Shown here: piece by piece, positions 3,958 through 61,674 of the stretch | Layout of the letters: every line of letters starts with the position of its first letter | How positions within the stretch are numbered: position 1 is the first letter of the stretch | Origin: Nitrosopumilus sp. | GTDB lineage: Archaea > Thermoproteota > Nitrososphaeria > Nitrososphaerales > Nitrosopumilaceae | Assembly (NCBI GenBank): GCA_965205425.1 | Contig: CBDBGZ010000005.1 | Span: forward strand, 168,670 to 232,669 | DNA length: 64,000 bases | Direction: 5' to 3' | Notes under the pieces: model-generated | Seen by the model: only the letters and a program-made list of their open reading frames with translations | The model's database searches: none | What the model was told of the DNA's origin: nothing | Translations under genes and position numbers: made by a program

Positions 3958-4956
3958 TTACACCATTATTAGATAAAATGAAGAATTAATGCACACAGCC
4001 TCCCCATTAATTTTTGTACCAAAAAACCATGTTTCGGCATTTATCATTACTATTAAAATTGTTAGACCACAGTGGCCTTGTAGAAACCATGATAAAATAA
4101 CAAAATCTAATTTTCTAATCCTGTAAGCATTGTATGCAATTAACCTGTACAACATCTCATTGTCCTGAGTTGTAACATTTCTTGATGTGACATCTCCTGA
4201 CATTATCTGTTTGATCACAAAAAAGATTGTTTCAGATTTGTTTCTCTGATGGTACAATTGTACAGGAAAGTTCCTCTTCATCTCCTTTCTGTGAATTCCG
4301 CTGGTTCTGTAAATTGGAACTGTTCCATATCGAGTTGGAATTATTGCAGCTGTGTTGATCTGTTCTGCACCAACATGATTATTCTCATCATCAAAACCCA
4401 TGTCACCTAACACAATATCAACTGGAACAATATTGTTGGTTTTGTACAACAATGGCAGAAAATCAGGATTATCATGTTGCATGTTGTGGTGTGTCATGAC
4501 ACAGCAAACAAGCTGTGTATTCATGTCAGCACAAACAACAACTTTTAGGAAATTCCTGCGTAACTGTACTCTTTTTGTATAATAGTATGATGCTGTACTG
4601 TAACTGAATCCGCTACCATCAATTCCAGCTAGAACCAGTCTGACTTTTTTGTACAAAATGAATTCCTGCAACATTTTATGTAACAGATTTCCTTCCAGTC
4701 TTGCAGCTGCCTTTTGTAGTGTGGTGTAATGTGGAATGGTAGACAAACCAAGATATTCCTGAATTCCTACACATTCTTCTAAAAATTCTGTAAATCTTCT
4801 ATAACTCTTTGATTCGTACTGTCGTATTGCCAAGAGTATGAGATGTGTCCAAACAGAATAGATATGATTTGATTTTGGATGTAAGAACCTGGGAATTCTG
4901 CATCTGGTGATTATATTGAGTAGTGTTTTGCACATTTTGACGTATGATGAGACCAT
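3958..4956 (-). CDS. IS5-family DDE transposase (reads through the IR into flanking DNA)
   Basis: GIDGSG, GDMGFD, YHQRNKSETIF motifs; no stop codon inside the element. Confidence 0.85.
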   Translation of the reverse strand: MVSSYVKMCKTLLNIITRCRIPRFLHPKSNHIYSVWTHLILLAIRQYESKSYRRFTEFLEECVGIQEYLGLSTIPHYTTLQKAAARLEGNLLHKMLQEFILYKKVRLVLAGIDGSGFSYSTASYYYTKRVQLRRNFLKVVVCADMNTQLVCCVMTHHNMQHDNPDFLPLLYKTNNIVPVDIVLGDMGFDDENNHVGAEQINTAAIIPTRYGTVPIYRTSGIHRKEMKRNFPVQLYHQRNKSETIFFVIKQIMSGDVTSRNVTTQDNEMLYRLIAYNAYRIRKLDFVILSWFLQGHCGLTILIVMINAETWFFGTKINGEAVCINSSFYLIMV

Positions 4957-5044
4957 ACTGTAATCTGCAAATACAATCCTAATGGATCTAAATTAGCTAA
5001 AATGTATCACAATTGGGTTAAAATCAGATGGTTTCTACAAGGCC
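4074..5044 (-). mobile_element. IS5-family IS, copy 1 (971 bp)
   Basis: Terminal IR GGCCTTGTAGAAACCAT; no TSD; second copy at 60711-61674. Confidence 0.9.
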
Positions 5045-27186: not shown

Positions 27187-27235
27187 GATGGGTACGATGC
27201 AACAGATGTGACTAACCTATAATTACACGATGGTA

Positions 27236-27366
27236 TAGCGAAAAGATAAAGTTCGTGAACTAAAAATCATCAAAAAACTAGAGATTAGATGATTTTACCT
27301 AAGGTAAATACGAATAAACAATCTGAAACACCTTGAAAATAGTTCATGAACATATGCTTCTCGCTA
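27236..27366. mobile_element. MITE copy 1 (131 bp, IS630-related)
   Basis: TA-flanked, ends TAGCGA...TCGCTA; identical to 31939-32069. Confidence 0.9.
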
Positions 27367-27470
27367 TACATTGTGGTTGGTGGAATTTTAATGGTTGGTG
27401 TTGTAGTCTTTATGTTTTTGAGAAAATCAAAAACCAATTTAGAAGAAGAATGGGAAGAAGAGGAAGAACT

Positions 27471-31833: not shown

Positions 31834-32233
31834 CCGAATTAAATAAATCATTTTTGGCATATATTTTTCATATACAATTTCAGAACGAGTGATCTTATCC
31901 ATATCGGATGTTAATTCAGGATCAGATAATAATTGATATAGCGAAAAGATAAAGTTCGTGAACTAAAAATCATCAAAAAACTAGAGATTAGATGATTTTA
32001 CCTAAGGTAAATACGAATAAACAATCTGAAACACCTTGAAAATAGTTCATGAACATATGCTTCTCGCTATACATGATGATTCCATTTGAAATCATTAATC
32101 CTGATACAAATATTACAAAAATTACGGCAGTAGGTTTCTTTTTGTTAAGTTTTGTAGTAGCATAGTAATCCAATCCAGGTATTATTGCATATAGTGTAAA
32201 TCGTCTCACATTTACAGGGCCGCCATTATTCAT
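31834..32233 (-). pseudogene. Membrane protein gene interrupted by a MITE and cut by IS1595
   Basis: Removing the MITE and one TA restores ...GIIMYQLLSDPELTSDMDKITRSEIV. Confidence 0.6.
31939..32069. mobile_element. MITE copy 2 (131 bp)
   Basis: Identical to 27236-27366, TA duplication. Confidence 0.9.
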
Positions 32234-33159: not shown

Positions 33160-34591
33160 TTAGTTTTTTGCATTGGTTTCTGCTATACAATCATGACAAA
33201 TGATCTCGCCCTTAATTATCTCCACTTCTACTCCAGATCTTCAGTAGATGGGAAAGTAACTCAAGTTACACATTCTAGAAAATAATTATTTTTGTTATTT
33301 CTAAAGTAATGAATAATTATCTTTACAAAGAAATATTTGAGAATTTCAATTGATATTATTGGTTTGTGATTTTGTACATTAGTTTCTTCTGAGATAATCA
33401 AATTAGCAATTATCCATGCATTGTACAAAATCAAGGAATAGTAAAAATACAACAATCTTATGGATTGGTTTGAACTGGTGGTTTTTGGTCTGAACCTTCC
33501 CACACATGCATAACCTGTTTCAATCCCCCAACGTTTCTTGTAATCAGTTGGAATGTCCTGTATATTTTCAGATATTTCTTTTGGTGAAACGTTTGTTGCA
33601 AACACAGCATACTGATCAATAATATCTGATTTTTTTCTTGCATTTTTGTTTGGTAGAATAACTAGATTAAATGATTCTACATGTCCTGATGATGATTTTA
33701 TCGTGTATGGCGAGATTGATTTTCTATCTCCATTAACGTATTGTAAAATGGCATCTTTGATTCGAGAATTCTTTTTTGCAGGCATTAGAAATTTTAAATT
33801 CTTTTGTTTTATTTCTGAAATTGTTCCAGCTGTGAAAAACTCCCTATCCACTAGCAATAGTTTAATCTTGATTCCATTATTGATGCCATCAGAGAGTAAT
33901 TTACGCACAAAATCGGCATTTGATTTGTTGTCATACAAAGGATAACAACCTAATTGAGCCCTGATTCTTTTTTCAACGCACTGCATGGTGCAGTAACTCT
34001 CAAAATGAGTAGTACTGTTTTTTGATTTTGATTTTATTAAAGAATGGTTTGGCAATTTGTCATATCTTGGGATTAGATGTTTGTCAATTGCCACAGTAAC
34101 TGGTTGCTCCAATACTCCCAATTCTTGTAATTTTGATATGGTACTATCCAGTGAACGATGTAATTGAATTTGCATTGTTTTTTGTGATATTTTTGATATG
34201 ATTTTTCTCAACCATGAAACCAGTTGGAGAAGCATTATCTGATTCCATTGCCAGTCTCTTCAATCCAGATTCAGAATATGAATTTCCAAGACACAATGAC
34301 ATGATAGAATTATGTGCATCTGCATTGTGGAACCGTGAGTTATTTTTACTAGAGCATGGAAACAATAAGATATTGTACATTATTTTAGCGACAATATCAA
34401 ATGCTTTTGATAGTACTACACCTTGGTGTGTCATGGTATCAAATGAAGTACAATGCATATTTGATGGAGTGACATACTTTCATCAAGCTTTTTCTATCTG
34501 AATAATTTGAGAAAATGATCGTTATTTTTTGATCCGAATTGAGCACTTTCCTATCTACTGATCTTAGACAAGTATGGCATAAACCACGCAT
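33160..34591 (-). pseudogene. 35-aa CxxC...CxxC microprotein gene split by ISH3
   Basis: Removing the IS and one ATCTT gives MRGLCHTCLRSGVEVEIIKGEIICHDCIAETNAKN*. Confidence 0.65.
33242..34560 (-). mobile_element. ISH3-family IS, copy 2 (variant, 1319 bp)
   Basis: IRs CAGTAGAT(G/A)GGAAAGT; 5-bp TSD ATCTT; transposase ORFs 34144-34458 and 33261-34235. Confidence 0.92.
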
Positions 34592-38466: not shown

Positions 38467-38587
38467 GTTTAGAGATGTTAAATTGGGCATAAATATACGA
38501 TTCTCAAAAATAGAAAAATTCCTCAAATTATTGATAAATGAGAAGAATTTAGGTTGAAATTCAGTCTTAATCATCAAATGAAATTAT

Positions 38588-38788
38588 CCATGTGAATTGT
38601 TTTTATACATTTCCTCTCTTTCCATACATCAGGGCATGGCTTTCGCTAGAGAATGGTTTCAATCAAAAGATGGCAGACATGTATCCATACGAGACTATTC
38701 TCTCAATGCTATCTTCATCCTAGTTAGGATTATTCGCAGTTATCAGACGAGGCCTTGTCCCTCAAGCATTTTAACGCGACTTGCAGTC
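38588..38788 (-). ncRNA. Candidate IS110 bridge/seek RNA (non-coding region downstream of the recombinase)
   Basis: ~200-nt non-coding tract inside the element with stems and short matches to donor and target arms. Confidence 0.55.
38600..38614 (-). promoter_or_regulatory. BRE/TATA-like box at the IS110 right end (candidate circle-junction promoter)
   Basis: GGAAATG-TATAAAAA on the minus strand, 12 nt from the core. Confidence 0.45.
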
Positions 38789-39880
38789 CTAACTATAATT
38801 TTGCACAAATTCTCTCCTCTCCTTTAGCATCCAATAAATTACTCGCAGAATCTTTGATGCGCCAGCAACTGCATCTTTGGATGAACCTCTCTTCTTTTTA
38901 ATGCGATTATAAAATTTGGTAATGTCGCTGTTCTTGGTATGTATTGCATGGGTGTGTATGCATTCTGTTAGAACCCATCTCAATGTCATGCTTCCTCTCT
39001 TTGTAATTCTTCCATGATGTATTGTATCTGCAGAATTTCTCACCGATGGAACAATCCCTGCATATGCACATAACTTGCGAGAATTTGAAAATCTACTAAT
39101 CTCTGCAATTTCTGAGAATATGCTCAATGCAGTGTATGGTCCAACTCCAGGTATTGATGTCAAAATACACACATCAGGATTATCATTTACCATGCGACGT
39201 ATCATGGAATCTATTTTTGCAACCTCCTTTTTGTGAAATTTTATGCTTTGTAGGTACGAATCTATTCTATAACTCTCCAATTTTCCAAGTGCACGTATGT
39301 GTTCTGAGGAAAATGGTGTTGCTTTGATATGGATTCCCTCCTGTAGTGTAATACCATGTATGGAATTCTTCATCTTTACAATAATGCGCACAATCTTGTG
39401 TCGATGTCTTACAAGCTGTCTGTATTGCACAATTGTGTGATCTGGCACAAATGATTCTGCAATGTATCCTCCTCGTAGCAAATTTGCAAGATGGTACGCA
39501 TCAATTTTATCAGTCTTTTTGAGTGATGATGCTATTATCTTTGTGTTGTATGGATTAGATAGTATAACATCAAGATGTAATTTGTCTGTCATGTGTCTAT
39601 AAAGGCCATACCAGACAGATGATGACTCTAAAACATATTTTGCGTTCTTTGGAATTTTGGATGTAATTTTGCTAATAGCAGAAAAATCACTGGAAATCTT
39701 TTTGTTAAATAATAATTTGCCAATCTCATCTACTGCTGCCACCTGTACAGAGTTCTTGTGAACATCCAATCCTACAAACATCAAATATTTTTTTTCAGGA
39801 AGGGTAGTGTGTTTGTTTGCATTTCTTACTTTCTTGATACGAATGCAAGTACCATCTAATTTCCTAGCTGATTTTGGCAC
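38789..39880 (-). CDS. IS110 DEDD recombinase
   Basis: VGLDVHK, VLESS, KTDKIDA, SIPGVG, YAGIVPSVRNSA. Confidence 0.95.
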   Translation of the reverse strand: MPKSARKLDGTCIRIKKVRNANKHTTLPEKKYLMFVGLDVHKNSVQVAAVDEIGKLLFNKKISSDFSAISKITSKIPKNAKYVLESSSVWYGLYRHMTDKLHLDVILSNPYNTKIIASSLKKTDKIDAYHLANLLRGGYIAESFVPDHTIVQYRQLVRHRHKIVRIIVKMKNSIHGITLQEGIHIKATPFSSEHIRALGKLESYRIDSYLQSIKFHKKEVAKIDSMIRRMVNDNPDVCILTSIPGVGPYTALSIFSEIAEISRFSNSRKLCAYAGIVPSVRNSADTIHHGRITKRGSMTLRWVLTECIHTHAIHTKNSDITKFYNRIKKKRGSSKDAVAGASKILRVIYWMLKERREFVQNYS

Positions 39881-40083
39881 ATATGGTTATAGTTATTACA
39901 AAATAACAATTCATTATATTCTGATCAAGAAAAATCTCTATATCTTACAAATTCACATCCAAAGTAAAATTTTGGGCCACAGATAAAATTGGTAATCAAT
40001 GTCGAATTGCGTTAGGCGATTACCAAAATCCAGCTATTCCATGGCAATATTGATGCTTTGATTATTCTTTTAAAATAAAAAAA

Positions 40084-41494
40084 GTAACTGTCTAGAGTTT
40101 TGAAGTACTTTCTTTAATATTTTTTATCTATATCTTTTCTGATCAGTGACAAATTACAATATACAATTGTCAGTATATGATGAGCTGGAATATTATCGTA
40201 ACAGATGTCACTCGTTGGAGCAAGAAAACCGTCAGTTACGCAAAGATATTGAATCACTACACAGAGAAATTGCAGAACTAAAACAAACAGTGTCTACACT
40301 TGTTGCAAGAAATATCAAAGCAAAACCAAACCAGACTGAAACTGCAAAAAAGAAGAAAACATCAAGACATCCTAGAAAAAGCAGAAGCAGACGGGCACAC
40401 ATTGATGATGCCATTACAGTTGACCAAAAAGAGTGCAACACATGTGGCAAATCACTCTCAGAACCAACTGATTCATACACCAGAATAGTAGAAGACATCA
40501 TTCCTGCAAAAGCAGTTGTGACAAAATATACGATAGTTAGACGATACTGCACAAACTGCAAAAAACAAATCTCGGGTAACATTCACACTGTACTGTCAAA
40601 TGAAAGGTTTGGAATTAGGCTCATGGTGCTAATCACATCACTAAAAACTATCGGATTATCGTATGGTAAAATATCTCATCTTTTGCAGATGCTCTTCTCA
40701 CTGCACATTACAGAATCTGCAATTAATCATGCAGTATCAATAGTATCAAAAGCATTTGGGAGCAGATATGATACAATGATTGTAGAGTTAAAAGAAGATC
40801 TAAACATACATGGTGATGAGACAAGTTGGAGGATAGATGGCCAGAACCACTGGTTGTGGGCATTTGTGAGTAAATGGACTGTAATTTACGAGATTGACAA
40901 ATCACGTTCAATGGATGTTCCCAAGAGAATTCTCAAGGAGTATAATGGCAACATTACAAGTGATTCGTACCCTGCATGGAACCATGTTGGAACAACTCAC
41001 CAGAAATGTCACATCCATTATCTCAGAGAGGTTAATGATACCATTAATCACAAGAATCCCGGACCAGAATTTGCACCATTTGCCAAGAATCTCAAGAAAA
41101 TAATTTATGACTCTCATGGTGTGGCAAAAATAAAATCAGAATCAGAAAGAATCCATGCAAAAAAGAATCTTGAAAGGAGAATTAATCACATCATATCAAA
41201 AAAATACACAGAGAAAAACTGTATCAGGTTTGTAAAAAGATTGAAACGTGAGAGAAAAATGCTTTTTACATTCCTAATTACTGGAACTGATTCACACAAT
41301 AACACAGCAGAGAGGGCAATCAGACCAAATGTGATAATTCGTAAAATTACAAACGGTCATAGAACCATTCATGGTGCCGATTCTCATAAGATACTGATGA
41401 GTATAAAGGAGACATGCAGATTACGAGGATTAAACTTTCATGATTATTCTTTAGAATATCTTGGAGATTTTACTTCAAAACTCTAGACAGTTAC
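40084..41494 (+). mobile_element. IS66-family IS, TnpC-only (ISBst12-like)
   Basis: Perfect 24-bp IR GTAACTGTCTAGAGTTTTGAAGTA; 8-bp TSD TAAAAAAA. Confidence 0.93.
40146..41486 (+). CDS. IS66 transposase TnpC
   Basis: Coiled coil, CxxC pairs, HGDETSW, QKCHIHYLR, NNTAERAIR. Confidence 0.92.
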   Translation: MTNYNIQLSVYDELEYYRNRCHSLEQENRQLRKDIESLHREIAELKQTVSTLVARNIKAKPNQTETAKKKKTSRHPRKSRSRRAHIDDAITVDQKECNTCGKSLSEPTDSYTRIVEDIIPAKAVVTKYTIVRRYCTNCKKQISGNIHTVLSNERFGIRLMVLITSLKTIGLSYGKISHLLQMLFSLHITESAINHAVSIVSKAFGSRYDTMIVELKEDLNIHGDETSWRIDGQNHWLWAFVSKWTVIYEIDKSRSMDVPKRILKEYNGNITSDSYPAWNHVGTTHQKCHIHYLREVNDTINHKNPGPEFAPFAKNLKKIIYDSHGVAKIKSESERIHAKKNLERRINHIISKKYTEKNCIRFVKRLKRERKMLFTFLITGTDSHNNTAERAIRPNVIIRKITNGHRTIHGADSHKILMSIKETCRLRGLNFHDYSLEYLGDFTSKL

Positions 41495-41603
41495 TAAAAA
41501 AAGTGTTTTAAAATTGATTCAAGTAATTTAAAAAAAACCCATTGAGCCTATCACTGGTAATTCAATGGAAAGTTTTAGGTAGTATCCTATTTCTGATATA
41601 TCA

Positions 41604-49395: not shown

Positions 49396-49546
49396 TCTAA
49401 GGTTTATTTTTAATTAATGCTTTGATTTGAAAAATACTAATCAGGAATTTGTACTATATGAAAATTATGTCGCTTATCCATTTGTATCCTCTTTGGCCCA
49501 ATTGGGGTTATCATCTCTGATCGTTTTTGTGGCAATTCTGTATGTA

Positions 49547-50692
49547 TAGTTTAGGCATATAAATTTTGAATAAACTGTCAAGTATTTTAACCCAAAAGAT
49601 CTAGATCGTAGAATCAATTCATGAAACCATGTCAAAGAGTACAAGACAATCCAAGGTTTCCTCTGGGAATCAATTCATGAAAGGTACAAGCATTAATTTT
49701 TTAAGAAAAACATGCAAGAATGAAAAAAATGCAAAAGCAAAGATAAGACTAAAGGCTGCAATACTAAGAAAACAAAATATTCCGTATTCTGTGATATGTG
49801 CAAGTCTGGATGTCATACCATCAACTCTGTCCTACTGGCTAAATCGAATGGATGAAGAGGGAATATCTGCATCACGCCGCAAGAAATATTCTGGTTCTAG
49901 ATGTTTTCTAAATGAAAAACAACTAGTATCATTAAGAAATGATCTGATTTCAGGTCCAGAAAAGTTTGGATTTAACCAATTCATGTGGAGTACAAGAATG
50001 GTAATTACACATGTGAATAAAAAATACAACACCCTATACTCTGCAAGAGGAATGCGTGAATTGCTGCACAGAATTGGATTCTCATCAAAAAAACCACGTC
50101 CCACACATCACAAATCAGCCTCAAAAGAGGAACAAACCCGTTTTAAAAAAACGCAAAAAGGAGTATCAAAAAATATTCCAAATTGGGATACACCACACTA
50201 TGTCTGGATGAGTCAACAAACAAGATAGCACCTAACATAAAGCGCGGATGGTATCTTGCAGGCAATAACATTACCACACCAATTAATTACACTCGAGAAA
50301 AATTTCAATCATTTGGTGCATTGGGGGATGACGGCGTATTTTTTTGTAGGTTCTATGATAAATCAAACACAGACTCATTTCTTGATTTCTTAAAATCCTT
50401 GCAGAAACAATTTGGCAAGAAACTGTTATTATTTGCAGACAATGCATCATACCACAAAAGTGTCAGAGTAAAAGAATTTCTCAAGGTATCAAAAAGAAAT
50501 GTAATCATAAGATATTTTCCTGCATACACCCCAGAACTCAATCCAATTGAGGTACAGTGGAGAGAAGAGAAAAATGGTAATGCCAATACATTCTTTGCAA
50601 ATGGAACTGAGATGAGAAAACACATGCAGAAGAGACTAGATAATGGAGACGTTCGAGTTGTGAAATTATTCAAATATTTAATGCCTTAACTA
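49547..50692 (+). mobile_element. IS630-family IS type B, copy 1 (1146 bp)
   Basis: TA duplication, ~27-bp IR; ORFs 49629-50228 and 50183-50689 in -1 relation across TTTAAAAAAA; LDES, DNASYH, PELNPIE. Confidence 0.92.
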
Positions 50693-50742
50693 TATCAAGC
50701 ACTTTAGATGTATTTTGCCATCTCAGAAAACATATTCAACTC

Positions 50743-52062
50743 CAGTAGATGGGAAAGTAACTCAATTTAGATCAAAAACTATCAATTATTCAATCAATCT
50801 ATTCAGATAGAAAAAGCTTGATGTAAGTATGTCACTCCATCAAATATGCATTGTACTTCATTTGATACCATGACACACCAAGGCGTGATACTATCTAAAG
50901 CATTTGATATTGTCGCTAAAATAATGTACAATATCTTGTTGTTTCCATGCTCTAGTAAAAATAACTCACGGTTCCATAATGCTGATGCACACAATTCTGT
51001 CATGTCATTGTGTTTGGGAAATTCATATTCTGAATCTGGATTAAAGAGACTGGCAATGGAATCAGATAATGCTTCTCCAACGGGTTTCATGGTTGAGAAA
51101 AATCATATCAAAAATATCACAAAAAACAATGCAAATTCAATTACATCGTTCACTGGATAGTACCATATCAAAATTACAAGAATTGGGAGTATTGGAGCAA
51201 CCAGTTACTGTAGCAATTGACAAACATCTAATCCCAAGATATGACAAATTGCCAAACCATTCTTTAATAAAATCAAAATCAAAAAACAGTACTACTCATT
51301 TTGAGAGTTACTGCACCATGCAGTGCGTTGAAAAAAGAATCAGGGCTCAATTAGGTTGTTATCCTTTGTATGACAACAAATCAAATGCCGGTTTTGTGCG
51401 TAAATTACTCTCTGATGGCATCAATAATGGAATCAAGATTAAACTATTGCTAGTGGATAGGGAGTTTTTCACAGCTGGAACAATTTCAGAAATAAAACAA
51501 AAGAATTTAAAATTTCTAATGCCTGCAAAAAAGAATTCTCGAATCAAAGATGCAATTGTACAATACGTTAATGGAGATAGAAAGTCAATCTCGCCATACA
51601 CAATAAAATCATCATCAGGACATGTAGAATCATTTAATCTAGTTATTCTGCCAAACAAAAATGCAAGAAAAAAATCAGATATTATTGATCAGTATGTTGT
51701 GTTTGCAACAAACGTTTCACCAAAAGAAATATCATATAACATACAAAACATTCCAACTGATTACAAGAAACGTTGGGGGATTGAAACAGGCTATGCATGT
51801 GTGGGAAGGTTCAGACCAAAAACCACCAGTTCAAACCAATCCATAAGATTGTTGTATTTTTACTATTCCTTGATTTTGTACAATGCATGGATAATTGCTA
51901 ATTTGATTATCTCAGAAGAAACCAATGTACAAAATCACAAACCAATAATATCAATTGAAATTCTCAAATATTTCTTTGTAAAGATAATTATTCATTACCT
52001 TAGAAATAACAAAAATAATTATTTCCTAGAATGTGTAATTTGATGTACTTTCCCATCTACTG
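50743..52062 (+). mobile_element. ISH3-family IS, copy 3 (1320 bp)
   Basis: Same IRs as copy 1; ORFs 50846-51160 and 51069-52043; flanks AACTC/AAATC (imperfect TSD). Confidence 0.9.
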
Positions 52063-52088
52063 AAATCTAATATTGCATATATTAATTC

Positions 52089-52951: not shown

Positions 52952-53051
52952 TTCCATTTTTGAAGATTCTGCCATGATTATTTTATGACATTGGCAATAA
53001 CAATTAGTATGTGGCATGTCGTTATCCATTCTATACTTGCATTCTTTGGTA

Positions 53052-53183
53052 TAGCGAAAAGACAAAGTTCGTGAACTAAATAATTTCAAAAAACTAGGAA
53101 TCAGTTGATCTTGCCTATAGGTAAATACGAATAAACAAATTGAAACACCTAAAAAATAACTCACGAACTTATGCTTCTCGCTA
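53052..53183. mobile_element. MITE copy 3 (132 bp, diverged variant)
   Basis: TA-flanked, same ends and internal GGTAAATACGAATAAACAA as copies 1 and 2. Confidence 0.88.
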
Positions 53184-53263
53184 TATGTTCTATCATTGCC
53201 ATTTAGATGATAATCCATTTGTTGTTTCAAATTTATAATCTTCTTAAAATATTGATTTTTGTT

Positions 53264-58074: not shown

Positions 58075-58253
58075 ATGAATTTGAACCAAAAATTCCAAAA
58101 TAAATTACATTGTATTTGTAACGAAGATGTAGTTTTTGAAATTATTGAGGATATAGAATGTGATTGGGGAACTCATCTTGTAATTCAATGTCCAAAATGT
58201 GAAGAATTGTTTTCTGCTGATTGTGAATGTCCTGCTTTTGGAAATATTCTAAA
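58075..58253 (+). pseudogene. Cys-rich protein gene truncated by IS110
   Basis: HCIC...QCPKC...CPAF then runs into IS110 sequence at 58254. Confidence 0.65.
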
Positions 58254-58381
58254 TTATCCATGTGAATTGTTTTTATACATTTCCTCTCTTTCCATACATC
58301 AGGGCATGGCTTTCGCTAGAGAATGGTTTCAATCAAAAGATGGCAGACATGTATCCATACGAGACTATTCTCTCAATGCTA

Positions 58382-59527
58382 TAGTTAAGGCATTAAATAT
58401 TTGAATAATTTCACAACTCGAACGTCTCCATTATCTAATCTCTTCTGCATGTGTTTTCTCATCTCAGTTCCATTTACAAAGAATGTATTGGCATTACCAT
58501 TTTTCTCTTCTCTCCACTGTACCTCAATTGGATTGAGTTCTGGGGTGTATGCAGGAAAATATCTTATGATTACATTTCTTTTTGATACCTTGAGAAATTC
58601 TTTTACTCTAACACTTTTGTGGTATGATGCATTGTCTGCAAATAATAACAGTTTCTTGCCAAATTGTTTCTGCAAGGATTTTAAGAAATCAAGAAATGAG
58701 TCTGTGTTTGATTTATCATAGAACCTACAAAAAAATACGCCGTCATCCCCCAATGCACCAAATGATTGAAATTTTTCTCGAGTGTAATTAATTGGTGTGG
58801 TAATGTTATTGCCTGCAAGATACCATCCGCGCTTTATGTTAGGTGCTATCTTGTTTGTTGACTCATCCAGACATAGTGTGATATGTCCCAATTTGGAATA
58901 TTTTTTGATACTCCTTTTTGCGTTTTTTTAAAACGGGTTTGTTCCTCTTTTGAGGCTGATTTGTGATGTGTGGGACGTGGTTTTTTTGATGAGAATCCAA
59001 TTCTGTGCAGCAATTCACGCATTCCTCTTGCAGAGTATAGGGTGTTGTATTTTTTATTCACATGTGTAATTACCATTCTTGTACTCCACATGAATTGGTT
59101 AAATCCAAACTTTTCTGGACCTGAAATTAGATCATTTCTTAATGATACTAGCTGTTTTTCATTTAGAAAACATCTAGAACCAGAATATTTCTTGCGGTGT
59201 GATGCAGATATTCCCTCTTCATCCATTCGATTTAGCCAGTAGGACAGAGTTGATGGTATGACATCCAGACTTGCACATATCACAGAATACGGAATATTTT
59301 GTTTTCTTAGTATTGCAGCCTTTAATCTTATCTTTGCTTTTGCATTTTTTTCATTCTTGCATACTTTTCTTAAAAAATTAATGCTTGTACCTTTCATGAA
59401 TTGATTTCCAGAGGAAACCTTGGATTGTCTTGTACTCTTTGACATGGTTTCATGAATTGATTCTACGATCTAGATCTTTTGAGTTAAAATACTTGACAGT
59501 TTATTCAAAATTTATATGCCTAAACTA
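58382..59527 (-). mobile_element. IS630-family IS type B, copy 2 (inside the IS110 non-coding region)
   Basis: 1146 bp, TA duplication at GC-TA-TC; ORFs 58846-59445 and 58385-58891. Confidence 0.92.
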
Positions 59528-59606
59528 TATCTTCATCCTAGTTAGGATTATTCGCAGTTATCAGACGAGGCCTTGTCCCTCAAGCATTTTAACGCGACTT
59601 GCAGTC

Positions 59607-60698
59607 CTAACTATAATTTTGCACAAATTCTCTCCTCTCCTTTAGCATCCAATAAATTACTCGCAGAATCTTTGATGCGCCAGCAACTGCATCTTTGGAT
59701 GAACCTCTCTTCTTTTTAATGCGATTATAAAATTTGGTAATGTCGCTGTTCTTGGTATGTATTGCATGGGTGTGTATGCATTCTGTTAGAACCCATCTCA
59801 ATGTCATGCTTCCTCTCTTTGTAATTCTTCCATGATGTATTGTATCTGCAGAATTTCTCACCGATGGAACAATCCCTGCATATGCACATAACTTGCGAGA
59901 ATTTGAAAATCTACTAATCTCTGCAATTTCTGAGAATATGCTCAATGCAGTGTATGGTCCAACTCCAGGTATTGATGTCAAAATACACACATCAGGATTA
60001 TCATTTACCATGCGACGTATCATGGAATCTATTTTTGCAACCTCCTTTTTGTGAAATTTTATGCTTTGTAGGTACGAATCTATTCTATAACTCTCCAATT
60101 TTCCAAGTGCACGTATGTGTTCTGAGGAAAATGGTGTTGCTTTGATATGGATTCCCTCCTGTAGTGTAATACCATGTATGGAATTCTTCATCTTTACAAT
60201 AATGCGCACAATCTTGTGTCGATGTCTTACAAGCTGTCTGTATTGCACAATTGTGTGATCTGGCACAAATGATTCTGCAATGTATCCTCCTCGTAGCAAA
60301 TTTGCAAGATGGTACGCATCAATTTTATCAGTCTTTTTGAGTGATGATGCTATTATCTTTGTGTTGTATGGATTAGATAGTATAACATCAAGATGTAATT
60401 TGTCTGTCATGTGTCTATAAAGGCCATACCAGACAGATGATGACTCTAAAACATATTTTGCGTTCTTTGGAATTTTGGATGTAATTTTGCTAATAGCAGA
60501 AAAATCACTGGAAATCTTTTTGTTAAATAATAATTTGCCAATCTCATCTACTGCTGCCACCTGTACAGAGTTCTTGTGAACATCCAATCCTACAAACATC
60601 AAATATTTTTTTTCAGGAAGGGTAGTGTGTTTGTTTGCATTTCTTACTTTCTTGATACGAATGCAAGTACCATCTAATTTCCTAGCTGATTTTGGCAC
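59607..60698 (-). CDS. IS110 DEDD recombinase, copy 2
   Basis: Protein identical to 38789-39880. Confidence 0.95.
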   Translation of the reverse strand: MPKSARKLDGTCIRIKKVRNANKHTTLPEKKYLMFVGLDVHKNSVQVAAVDEIGKLLFNKKISSDFSAISKITSKIPKNAKYVLESSSVWYGLYRHMTDKLHLDVILSNPYNTKIIASSLKKTDKIDAYHLANLLRGGYIAESFVPDHTIVQYRQLVRHRHKIVRIIVKMKNSIHGITLQEGIHIKATPFSSEHIRALGKLESYRIDSYLQSIKFHKKEVAKIDSMIRRMVNDNPDVCILTSIPGVGPYTALSIFSEIAEISRFSNSRKLCAYAGIVPSVRNSADTIHHGRITKRGSMTLRWVLTECIHTHAIHTKNSDITKFYNRIKKKRGSSKDAVAGASKILRVIYWMLKERREFVQNYS

Positions 60699-60710
60699 AT
60701 ATGGTTATAG

Positions 60711-61674
60711 GGCCTTGTAGAAACCATCTGATTTTAACCCAATTGTGATACATTTTAGCTAATTTAGATCCATTAGGATTGTATTTGCAGATTACAGTAT
60801 GGTCTCATCATACGTCAAAATGTGCAAAACACTACTCAATATAATCACCAGATGCAGAATTCCCAGGTTCTTACATCCAAAATCAAATCATATCTATTCT
60901 GTTTGGACACATCTCATACTCTTGGCAATACGACAGTACGAATCAAAGAGTTATAGAAGATTTACAGAATTTTTAGAAGAATGTGTAGGAATTCAGGAAT
61001 ATCTTGGTTTGTCTACCATTCCACATTACACCACACTACAAAAGGCAGCTGCAAGACTGGAAGGAAATCTGTTACATAAAATGTTGCAGGAATTCATTTT
61101 GTACAAAAAAGTCAGACTGGTTCTAGCTGGAATTGATGGTAGCGGATTCAGTTACAGTACAGCATCATACTATTATACAAAAAGAGTACAGTTACGCAGG
61201 AATTTCCTAAAAGTTGTTGTTTGTGCTGACATGAATACACAGCTTGTTTGCTGTGTCATGACACACCACAACATGATAATCCTGATTTTCTGCCATTGTT
61301 GTACAAAACCAACAATATTGTTCCAGTTGATATTGTGTTAGGTGACATGGGTTTTGATGATGAGAATAACCATGTTGGTGCAGAACAGATCAACACAGCT
61401 GCAATAATTCCAACTCGATATGGAACAGTTCCAATTTACAGAACCAGTGGAATTCATAGAAAGGAGATGAAGAGGAACTTTCCTGTACAATTGTACCATC
61501 AGAGAAACAAATCTGAAACAATCTTTTTTGTGATCAAACAGATAATGTCAGGAGATGTCACATCAAGAAATGTTACAACTCAGGACAATGAGATGTTGTA
61601 CAGGTTAATTGCATACAATTCCTACAGGATTAGAAAATTAGATTTTGTTATTTTATCATGGTTTCTACAAGGCC
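60711..61674 (+). mobile_element. IS5-family IS, copy 2 (964 bp), frameshifted transposase
   Basis: IR GGCCTTGTAGAAACCAT; 8-bp TSD GGTTATAG; one CAACATG unit missing relative to copy 1. Confidence 0.92.

Follow-up and report, generated by a model that had tools for sequence, protein, structure and literature searches.

Lying between positions 38584 and 39896 of the window (the whole 64,000-nt stretch of Nitrosopumilus sp. DNA that was analysed) is an element with an IS110-family recombinase gene, an IS1111-like layout and a predicted bridge RNA in its right end (Table 1). The 363-residue open reading frame matches PF01548 (DEDD) and PF02371 (Transposase_20), both above the Pfam cut-offs, and its catalytic residues, assigned by motif, are D39, E85, D124, D127 and S283. 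The first Pfam domain begins at residue 36, and ahead of an internal ATG (39781) is a basic, variable N-terminal tail of 33 amino acids. Non-coding DNA measures 202 nt downstream of the gene and 13 nt upstream; a long downstream non-coding region is a mark of the IS1111 group. The two ends share a short core and are without terminal inverted repeats or long target duplication, as is characteristic of IS110. The nearest plasmid matches to the recombinase are haloarchaeal IS110 elements (32–37%).

Table 1. Features of the IS110-family element and its surroundings, in window coordinates.
Feature	Position	Strand	Remarks
thrS BRE/TATA-like site	38490..38503	-	23 nt ahead of ATG 38466; host sequence, outside the element
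Right-junction core TA	38585..38586	-	placed by flank comparison and empty sites
Right end	38587..38599	-	sub-terminal repeat 38594-38590, then 3 terminal nt
TATA-like box	38600..38607	-	13 nt from core, outward-facing
BRE-like purine-rich hexamer	38608..38613	-	A at two positions in 22/26 and 20/26 types
Small 3' hairpin of non-coding region	38635..38649	-	
Donor-binding loop	38674..38720	-	right-donor guide 38712-38706, hairpin, left-donor guide 38688-38682
Target-binding loop	38723..38793	-	right-target guide about 38772-38765, hairpin, left-target guide about 38747-38740
DEDD recombinase, IS110-family	38789..39880	-	363 aa from GTG
7-mer, codons 9-11	39849..39855	-	from A' in this chimera; mismatches the C-type guide
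Left end of sibling A'	39878..39887	-	GTG start codon within left sub-terminal repeat (39882-39878)
Extra 6 nt	39888..39893	-	first four bases of sibling C's left end plus second core, where A' inserted
Left-junction core TA	39894..39895	-	placed by flank comparison and empty sites
Second copy of element	58251..60710	-	100% identical where aligned

Nine full-length copies of the open reading frame (at least 94.7%) are present in the genome together with fragments, as are two sibling families at about 54%; the sibling labels A', B and C used here were coined in this analysis. The second copy in the window carries other elements in its donor loop (58377–59529) and left end (60711–61674), and each of these inserts has another copy in the window (49545–50697 and 4074–5044, respectively). 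One insert is presumably IS630-like, judging by its TA duplication.

Anchors retrieved 12 left ends and 9 right ends from this genome. An earlier note on this DNA had taken ATAA as the core, with 12 nt to either side; the core is TA and each distance is 13 nt, leaving the sum of 28 nt from box to start unchanged. ATAA was rejected on the grounds that G precedes TA in two left flanks and C follows it in one right flank, and some relatives have just the T of the core in common between their ends. The sub-terminal inverted repeats are 5 bp long in this copy and 7–8 bp in the parent types B and C, against a usual 11–13 bp for IS1111 (7–17 bp in the available text of PMC11208160), so that the element is described here as IS1111-like and not as a filed IS1111 member. 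The repeats stand 7 nt from the left and 3 nt from the right end in the parent types, and 13 nt and 3 nt, respectively, in this copy. In the right ends of three relatives (L016, L086 and L171) the terminal part is directly duplicated, the duplication including the box described below in L086 and L171.

The right end folds into two loops, with compensatory changes in 14 of 24 predicted pairs across 20 aligned sequences. Guides in both loops covary with the sites they would read, as established by sequence comparison, with the significance of every count inflated by kinship among the rows: matches to the left flank number 81/115 against 30.5 after shuffling, to the right flank 115/147 against 67.9 (21 of 27 rows used, the other 6 being poorly aligned), to the left donor 167/175 against 149 (two rows left out) and to the right donor 102/115 against 87. 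The left-donor guide is identical to the terminal 5 nt of the right end followed by the core. The region is thus a predicted bridge RNA with loops matching target and donor, as in other IS110 elements, and the top-strand target match lies 5' of the bottom-strand match, the order of the IS1111 group according to the text available from PMC11187229. A search of Rfam returned just a chance U6 match, far below threshold.

Between the bridge RNA and the right terminus is a BRE/TATA-like box. The earlier note had reported a 15-nt box on the minus strand pointing outward, and it is indeed there, at 38614–38600, with an identical box in all nine anchored right ends of this genome. For a yardstick, 1,751 crudely called open reading frames of the host were reduced to 797 with a free upstream region, and a 14-column BRE+TATA matrix was trained on host upstream regions. 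Measured on the identical box of L071, the score on this matrix is 5.6 bits. That places it in the top quarter of 480 host promoter-like sites (upper quartile 4.78), and among 50,000 random genomic 14-mers about 0.1% score as high. A neutral matrix seed gave the same gap distribution and the same right-end profile.

Conservation of the box in related archaeal IS110 elements, which the earlier note had named as a check, was examined in 104 related loci, of which 103 have a recombinase match, 79 the right-end motif and 63 the left-end motif, the misses being fragments or distant elements. Right ends were placed by their terminal motif, independently of the box, and after two with less than 36% identity had been dropped the remaining 77 collapsed to 26 types, which are kin and not independent. 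Averaged over these types, the matrix score reaches 4.8 bits at a distance of 13 nt from the core, falls to 0.7 at 12 and 14 nt, and is below zero at all other distances up to 119. A box pattern, written after the boxes had been viewed and for which the matrix serves as the independent test, matches 24 of 26 types at a distance of 12–14 nt (mostly 13 nt) from the core, against 0.24 in other position ranges. Comparison of the sequences therefore shows both the box and its distance from the right end to be kept; it persists even in right ends of 54–63% G+C (L011, L016 and L017), and it is mutated in the closest chimeric relative, L002 (1.7 bits). The box is not part of the predicted RNA structure: it belongs to the final 55 or so alignment columns, which are unpaired. 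More distant archaeal IS110s (L156, L166 and L173 from other Thermoproteota, L177–L183 from haloarchaea), with undefined ends, have a similar terminal motif and A/T-rich boxes at other distances. Among seven haloarchaeal and four bacterial plasmid IS110 loci, also with undefined ends, several seem by eye to have the RNA upstream.

Opposite the box, in the left end, is the start of the recombinase gene. The GTG at 39880, proposed as the start by the earlier note, opens the 363-residue frame, and a GTG in frame and stop-free to the catalytic motif is shared by 58 of the 63 loci with a left-end motif and, counted by left-end type, by 19 of 20. Since this GTG lies inside the sub-terminal repeat, its presence alone is no proof of a start. 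Its frame, shown by the alignments to be conserved, is nonetheless held over 15 different tail lengths of 54–222 nt among the GTG-frame types, and an in-frame ATG ahead of the catalytic motif is absent in 5 of 20 types; from a frame kept in this way, GTG is likely to be the recombinase start. Left flanks supply no box to the integrated gene, whose start the earlier note had judged too close to the end to leave room for an internal promoter: among 18 integrated left ends of this genome none exceeds 3.3 bits at gaps of 21–23 nt, and this copy scores 0.7.

Joining the ends of the usual element gives 13 + 2 + 7 = 22 nt from box to GTG. In the 797 host upstream regions, TATA-like 8-mers stand at gaps of 21, 22, 23, 24 and 25 nt from ATG in 25, 36, 24, 18 and 16 cases, over a background of 4.7 per gap, making 22 nt the commonest distance. 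The amoA/amo boxes of these archaea are placed 23–24 nt upstream in the portion of PMC3379541 available. Of 218 host GTG codons upstream of the first ATG, 26 are found 21–23 nt from a strong box, compared with 479 of 20,441 other codons, and a leaderless GUG mRNA has been used in Saccharolobus work (PMC11698992, available sections). For this copy, joining by coordinate gives 28 nt. The earlier note had considered this a fitting spacing; the joined gap is indeed 28 nt, but the family spacing and the host peak are both 22 nt. Host gaps of 27, 28 and 29 nt have 10, 11 and 7 sites (28 in total, where 14 are expected; P = 6e-4). Two bases ahead of the GTG, a 6-nt leader would contain an ATG, out of frame, that opens an 8-codon reading frame.

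The six additional nucleotides reflect the origin of this copy, which sequence comparison shows to be chimeric: it derives from two sibling elements, of which one had inserted in the left end of the other. Its 5' part is that of A' and its 3' part and right end are those of C; within the recombinase gene the first 890 nt or so come from A' and the rest mostly from C, with the switch near 38990–39010. Two composites in this genome (C9:246004-248655 and C8:46869-49517) have A' inserted at the TA just ahead of the GTG in the left end of C, with the right-end box of A' 16 nt ahead of the sibling recombinase GTG. In one related genome, a sibling's left end follows each of the nine A' loci checked, and the target guides of A' match the sibling left-end site (loci L058–L065 and L089 among the A' cases). 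This copy is a deletion product of such a composite, retaining 6 nt of C's left end, and owes its spacing of 28 instead of 22 nt to that remnant. The four left-end bases of C within it are the right donor read by this element's guide. Two other copies keep 12 nt of C's left end, for a spacing of 34 nt. Switch points vary among the six chimeric copies (about nt 900, 1000 and 1100), which rules out a single origin of the 28-nt chimera and suggests that the chimeras may be dead-end recombinants. The donor guide of this copy still fits the outer end, and its target guide fits the right flank worse than the parent's guide does.

Beyond the right end is an archaeal-type thrS, whose ATG (38466) is separated from the core by 118 nt and from the box by 133 nt. 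Alignments of thrS start at or next to this ATG in many of the 52 matching genomes (61 searched), and its own BRE/TATA-like site occurs at a gap of 22–23 nt in 20 of 20 loci, scoring 2.4–5.9 (3.7 here). The earlier note had suggested that this copy would fire toward thrS, about 120 bp away; the box does face the gene, but with a conserved promoter-like site of its own thrS is predicted not to need the element's box. Two codons in frame with thrS, a TTG (38577) and an ATG (38574), also follow that box, at 22 and 25 nt respectively. A start at 38574–38577 could yield an N-terminally extended protein, or may be chance; an open frame of at least 39 codons upstream of thrS is also found in 2 of 19 relatives, so that the in-frame TTG here may be fortuitous.

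In 7 of 7 relatives tested, thrS is preceded by host DNA that here lies on contig C4 (23651–25500), beside another left end, and not at window positions 39896–40080. The two ends of this copy therefore come from different sites, brought together by either rearrangement or misassembly. Several copies likewise have left and right flanks from different sites, through either rearrangement across the element or misassembly.

Junction promoters are established for bacterial IS110/IS1111 members (PMC11187229, PMC13626964 and PMC12288879, in the text available from each). Closest in layout are ISEc11, ISKpn4 and ISPa11 of the IS1111 group, as described in the accessible part of PMC11187229: in them, as here, the guide RNA is downstream of the gene, the top-strand target match comes before the bottom-strand match, and sub-terminal repeats lie 7 nt from the left and 3 nt from the right end, as in the parent types. 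Their circle-junction promoter is presumed to transcribe gene and RNA, the same layout as predicted here. They differ in having a -35/-10 pair where this family has a BRE/TATA wholly in the right end, in lacking the placement of the start codon inside the left repeat, and in having SG where SA is found here at the serine motif.

IS621 (PMC11208160 and PMC13626964, in part) shares the two-loop bridge RNA with target and donor guides and the dinucleotide core, and has a junction promoter that boosts expression after excision, a likeness to the promoter predicted here. In IS621 the left end carries the RNA and the promoter straddles the junction, whereas here the RNA is in the right end, the guide order is reversed and the predicted promoter is intact in the integrated state. 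ISPpu9 and ISPpu10 of Pseudomonas putida are modular, with alternative ends and several circle types, ISPpu10 having a hybrid junction promoter and ISPpu9 internal promoters in place of a junction promoter (available portion of PMC12288879); modularity here, unlike theirs, stems from insertion of a sibling into another's left end.

For archaea, the single statement on a junction promoter found in the text available to us concerns Sulfolobus ISC1229 (PMC10883916) and is conditional ('If this mechanism is conserved'); the available part of that paper gives no promoter sequence or spacing, and the comparison is by description, not sequence. Nowhere in the literature searched, which lay outside subscription papers, ISfinder entries and supplements, is a TATA box described for the end of an archaeal IS110, and nothing there combines IS1111, archaea and a TATA box.

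We consider it probable that, after excision, the joined ends place an intact outward BRE/TATA before the GTG and so provide one transcript for recombinase and bridge RNA. In the integrated element, the complete box closing the right end would point into flanking DNA, and the recombinase gene would have no promoter of its own. Circle formation is inferred from bacterial relatives: on excision the ends would meet at the TA core, bringing the box 22 nt ahead of the GTG, and the resulting leaderless mRNA would encode the recombinase with the bridge RNA downstream, driving reinsertion. From this copy, with its 6 extra nucleotides, the mRNA would have a leader of about 6 nt. Transcription, start site and translation from GTG are likewise deduced from the arrangement of the ends.

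The earlier note's interpretation is partly supported, being right in outline for the family and in need of correction for this copy. It had called the box the archaeal BRE/TATA equivalent of the bacterial junction promoter, and sequence and position are kept accordingly, but the promoter is not split; with the entire box inside the right end, circularisation would relocate a promoter and build no hybrid. Its proposal that the recombinase is driven only after circularisation agrees with the lack of a box before the GTG of integrated copies, but 'only' is too strong, because the linear form of IS621 is expressed by read-through, which supports excision (PMC13626964, available text), and because insertion of a sibling can put a box 16 nt before a GTG. 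The circles themselves were sought as joined ends. No such junction is among the joints listed for 4 of 24 runs (Logan contigs), the one joint listed not being end-to-end; a degenerate junction pattern was found in 0 of 401 family genomes, and its 25 metagenome matches include none near a recombinase. Assemblies and contigs drop rare circles, so these counts weigh little either way.

An A/T-rich box at a fixed distance from the core could also be expected of a donor-site part, bound by the recombinase or a chromatin protein or serving in bending, in which case the match to promoter spacing would be coincidence. A second conserved A-tract about 10 nt further in from the box (positions -36 to -33) also fits a binding site. 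We regard this as unlikely: the sequence of the box varies as TATA boxes do and is not fixed, the BRE-like A residues are on the proper side, the left end has no equivalent box, and the distance of the box plus that of the left end equals the modal host gap to an in-frame start. The box might instead be a promoter that matters mainly in the integrated state, driving transcription either inward, in antisense orientation to the bridge RNA, or outward into a host gene or a sibling, with the recombinase expressed by read-through. The box is near-palindromic, outward exceeding inward in just 19 of 26 types, with scores (5.4 and 4.1 bits) that differ little, and A' directly precedes another recombinase gene both in the related genome with nine such loci and in the two composites here. 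The read-through reported for IS621, a cryptic internal promoter reported within a Sulfolobus IS110 (PMC11894787, available text) and the in-frame TTG 22 nt from the box before thrS all lend this some weight. It is nevertheless improbable, as it leaves unexplained the constant sum of about 22 nt from box to GTG across types; moreover, the 16-nt gap of the composites would place the start downstream of the GTG, and thrS has its own box, with upstream open frames recurring in relatives.

Alternatively, the internal ATG could be the translation start, served by a leadered mRNA or an internal promoter, with GTG kept just as part of the repeat. The repeat does offer another cause for conservation of the GTG, the tail's amino acids are poorly conserved, the Pfam domain begins downstream of the tail and many database gene calls are about 330 residues long, often starting at the internal ATG. 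The earlier note had set an ATG start (MFVGLD) with its own promoter as the case that would overturn its reading; the best score at promoter distance from that ATG is -2.4, and the frame held over so many tail lengths, together with the types that have no in-frame ATG, makes an ATG start very improbable. We therefore retain the relocated right-end promoter with a GTG start as the preferred reading.

Within the 5' coding region is a 7-mer that, in non-chimeric relatives (L003–L121), lies at left-end position 32–44 and repeats, in the same sense, the element's own right-donor guide together with 2 further nt. Agreement between 7-mer and guide extends to 149 of 161 positions in 23 types (106 after shuffling, s.d. 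5.5), and the 7-mer tracks the first 5 nt of the guide better than the donor does (111/115 against 102/115). Rare variants common to the two sit on separate branches of a FastTree phylogeny with five partial rows and without support values. The 5' coding region showed no preference for pairing with the non-coding RNA of its own element (-40.5 against -38.5 kcal/mol). A second motif in the 5' tail (39804–39819, minus strand) has conserved nucleotides though the frames differ between elements, which points to a role at the DNA or RNA level.

A wider picture may tentatively be drawn, more speculative than the promoter reading, in which these Nitrosopumilaceae IS110 elements form a self-contained archaeal circuit: a right-end BRE/TATA and a start codon in the left repeat would let the circle make a leaderless recombinase/bridge-RNA mRNA, integrated copies would be portable outward promoters, the guide copy in the 5' coding region would be autoregulatory, and the target loop of one sibling would be aimed at the left ends of its relatives, hitch-hiking on them and making chimeras. 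The comparison shows how the two-part sigma-70 junction switch of bacteria could work with TBP/TFB in archaea, and with box, core and spacing now named the question is directly testable. As the box is complete when integrated, any copy could activate host genes beside it, in ammonia oxidisers whose genomes are rich in IS elements. Trying such recombinases as tools also requires that ends, core, guides and start codon be defined.

The window is rich in other mobile DNA. It contains three copies of a 1.3-kb element (1241–2562, 33240–34543 and 50743–52064), with PF01609 in the one scanned, an IS66-family element (40083–41495) and MITE-like short repeats (27231–27378, 31934–32081 and 53047–53185).
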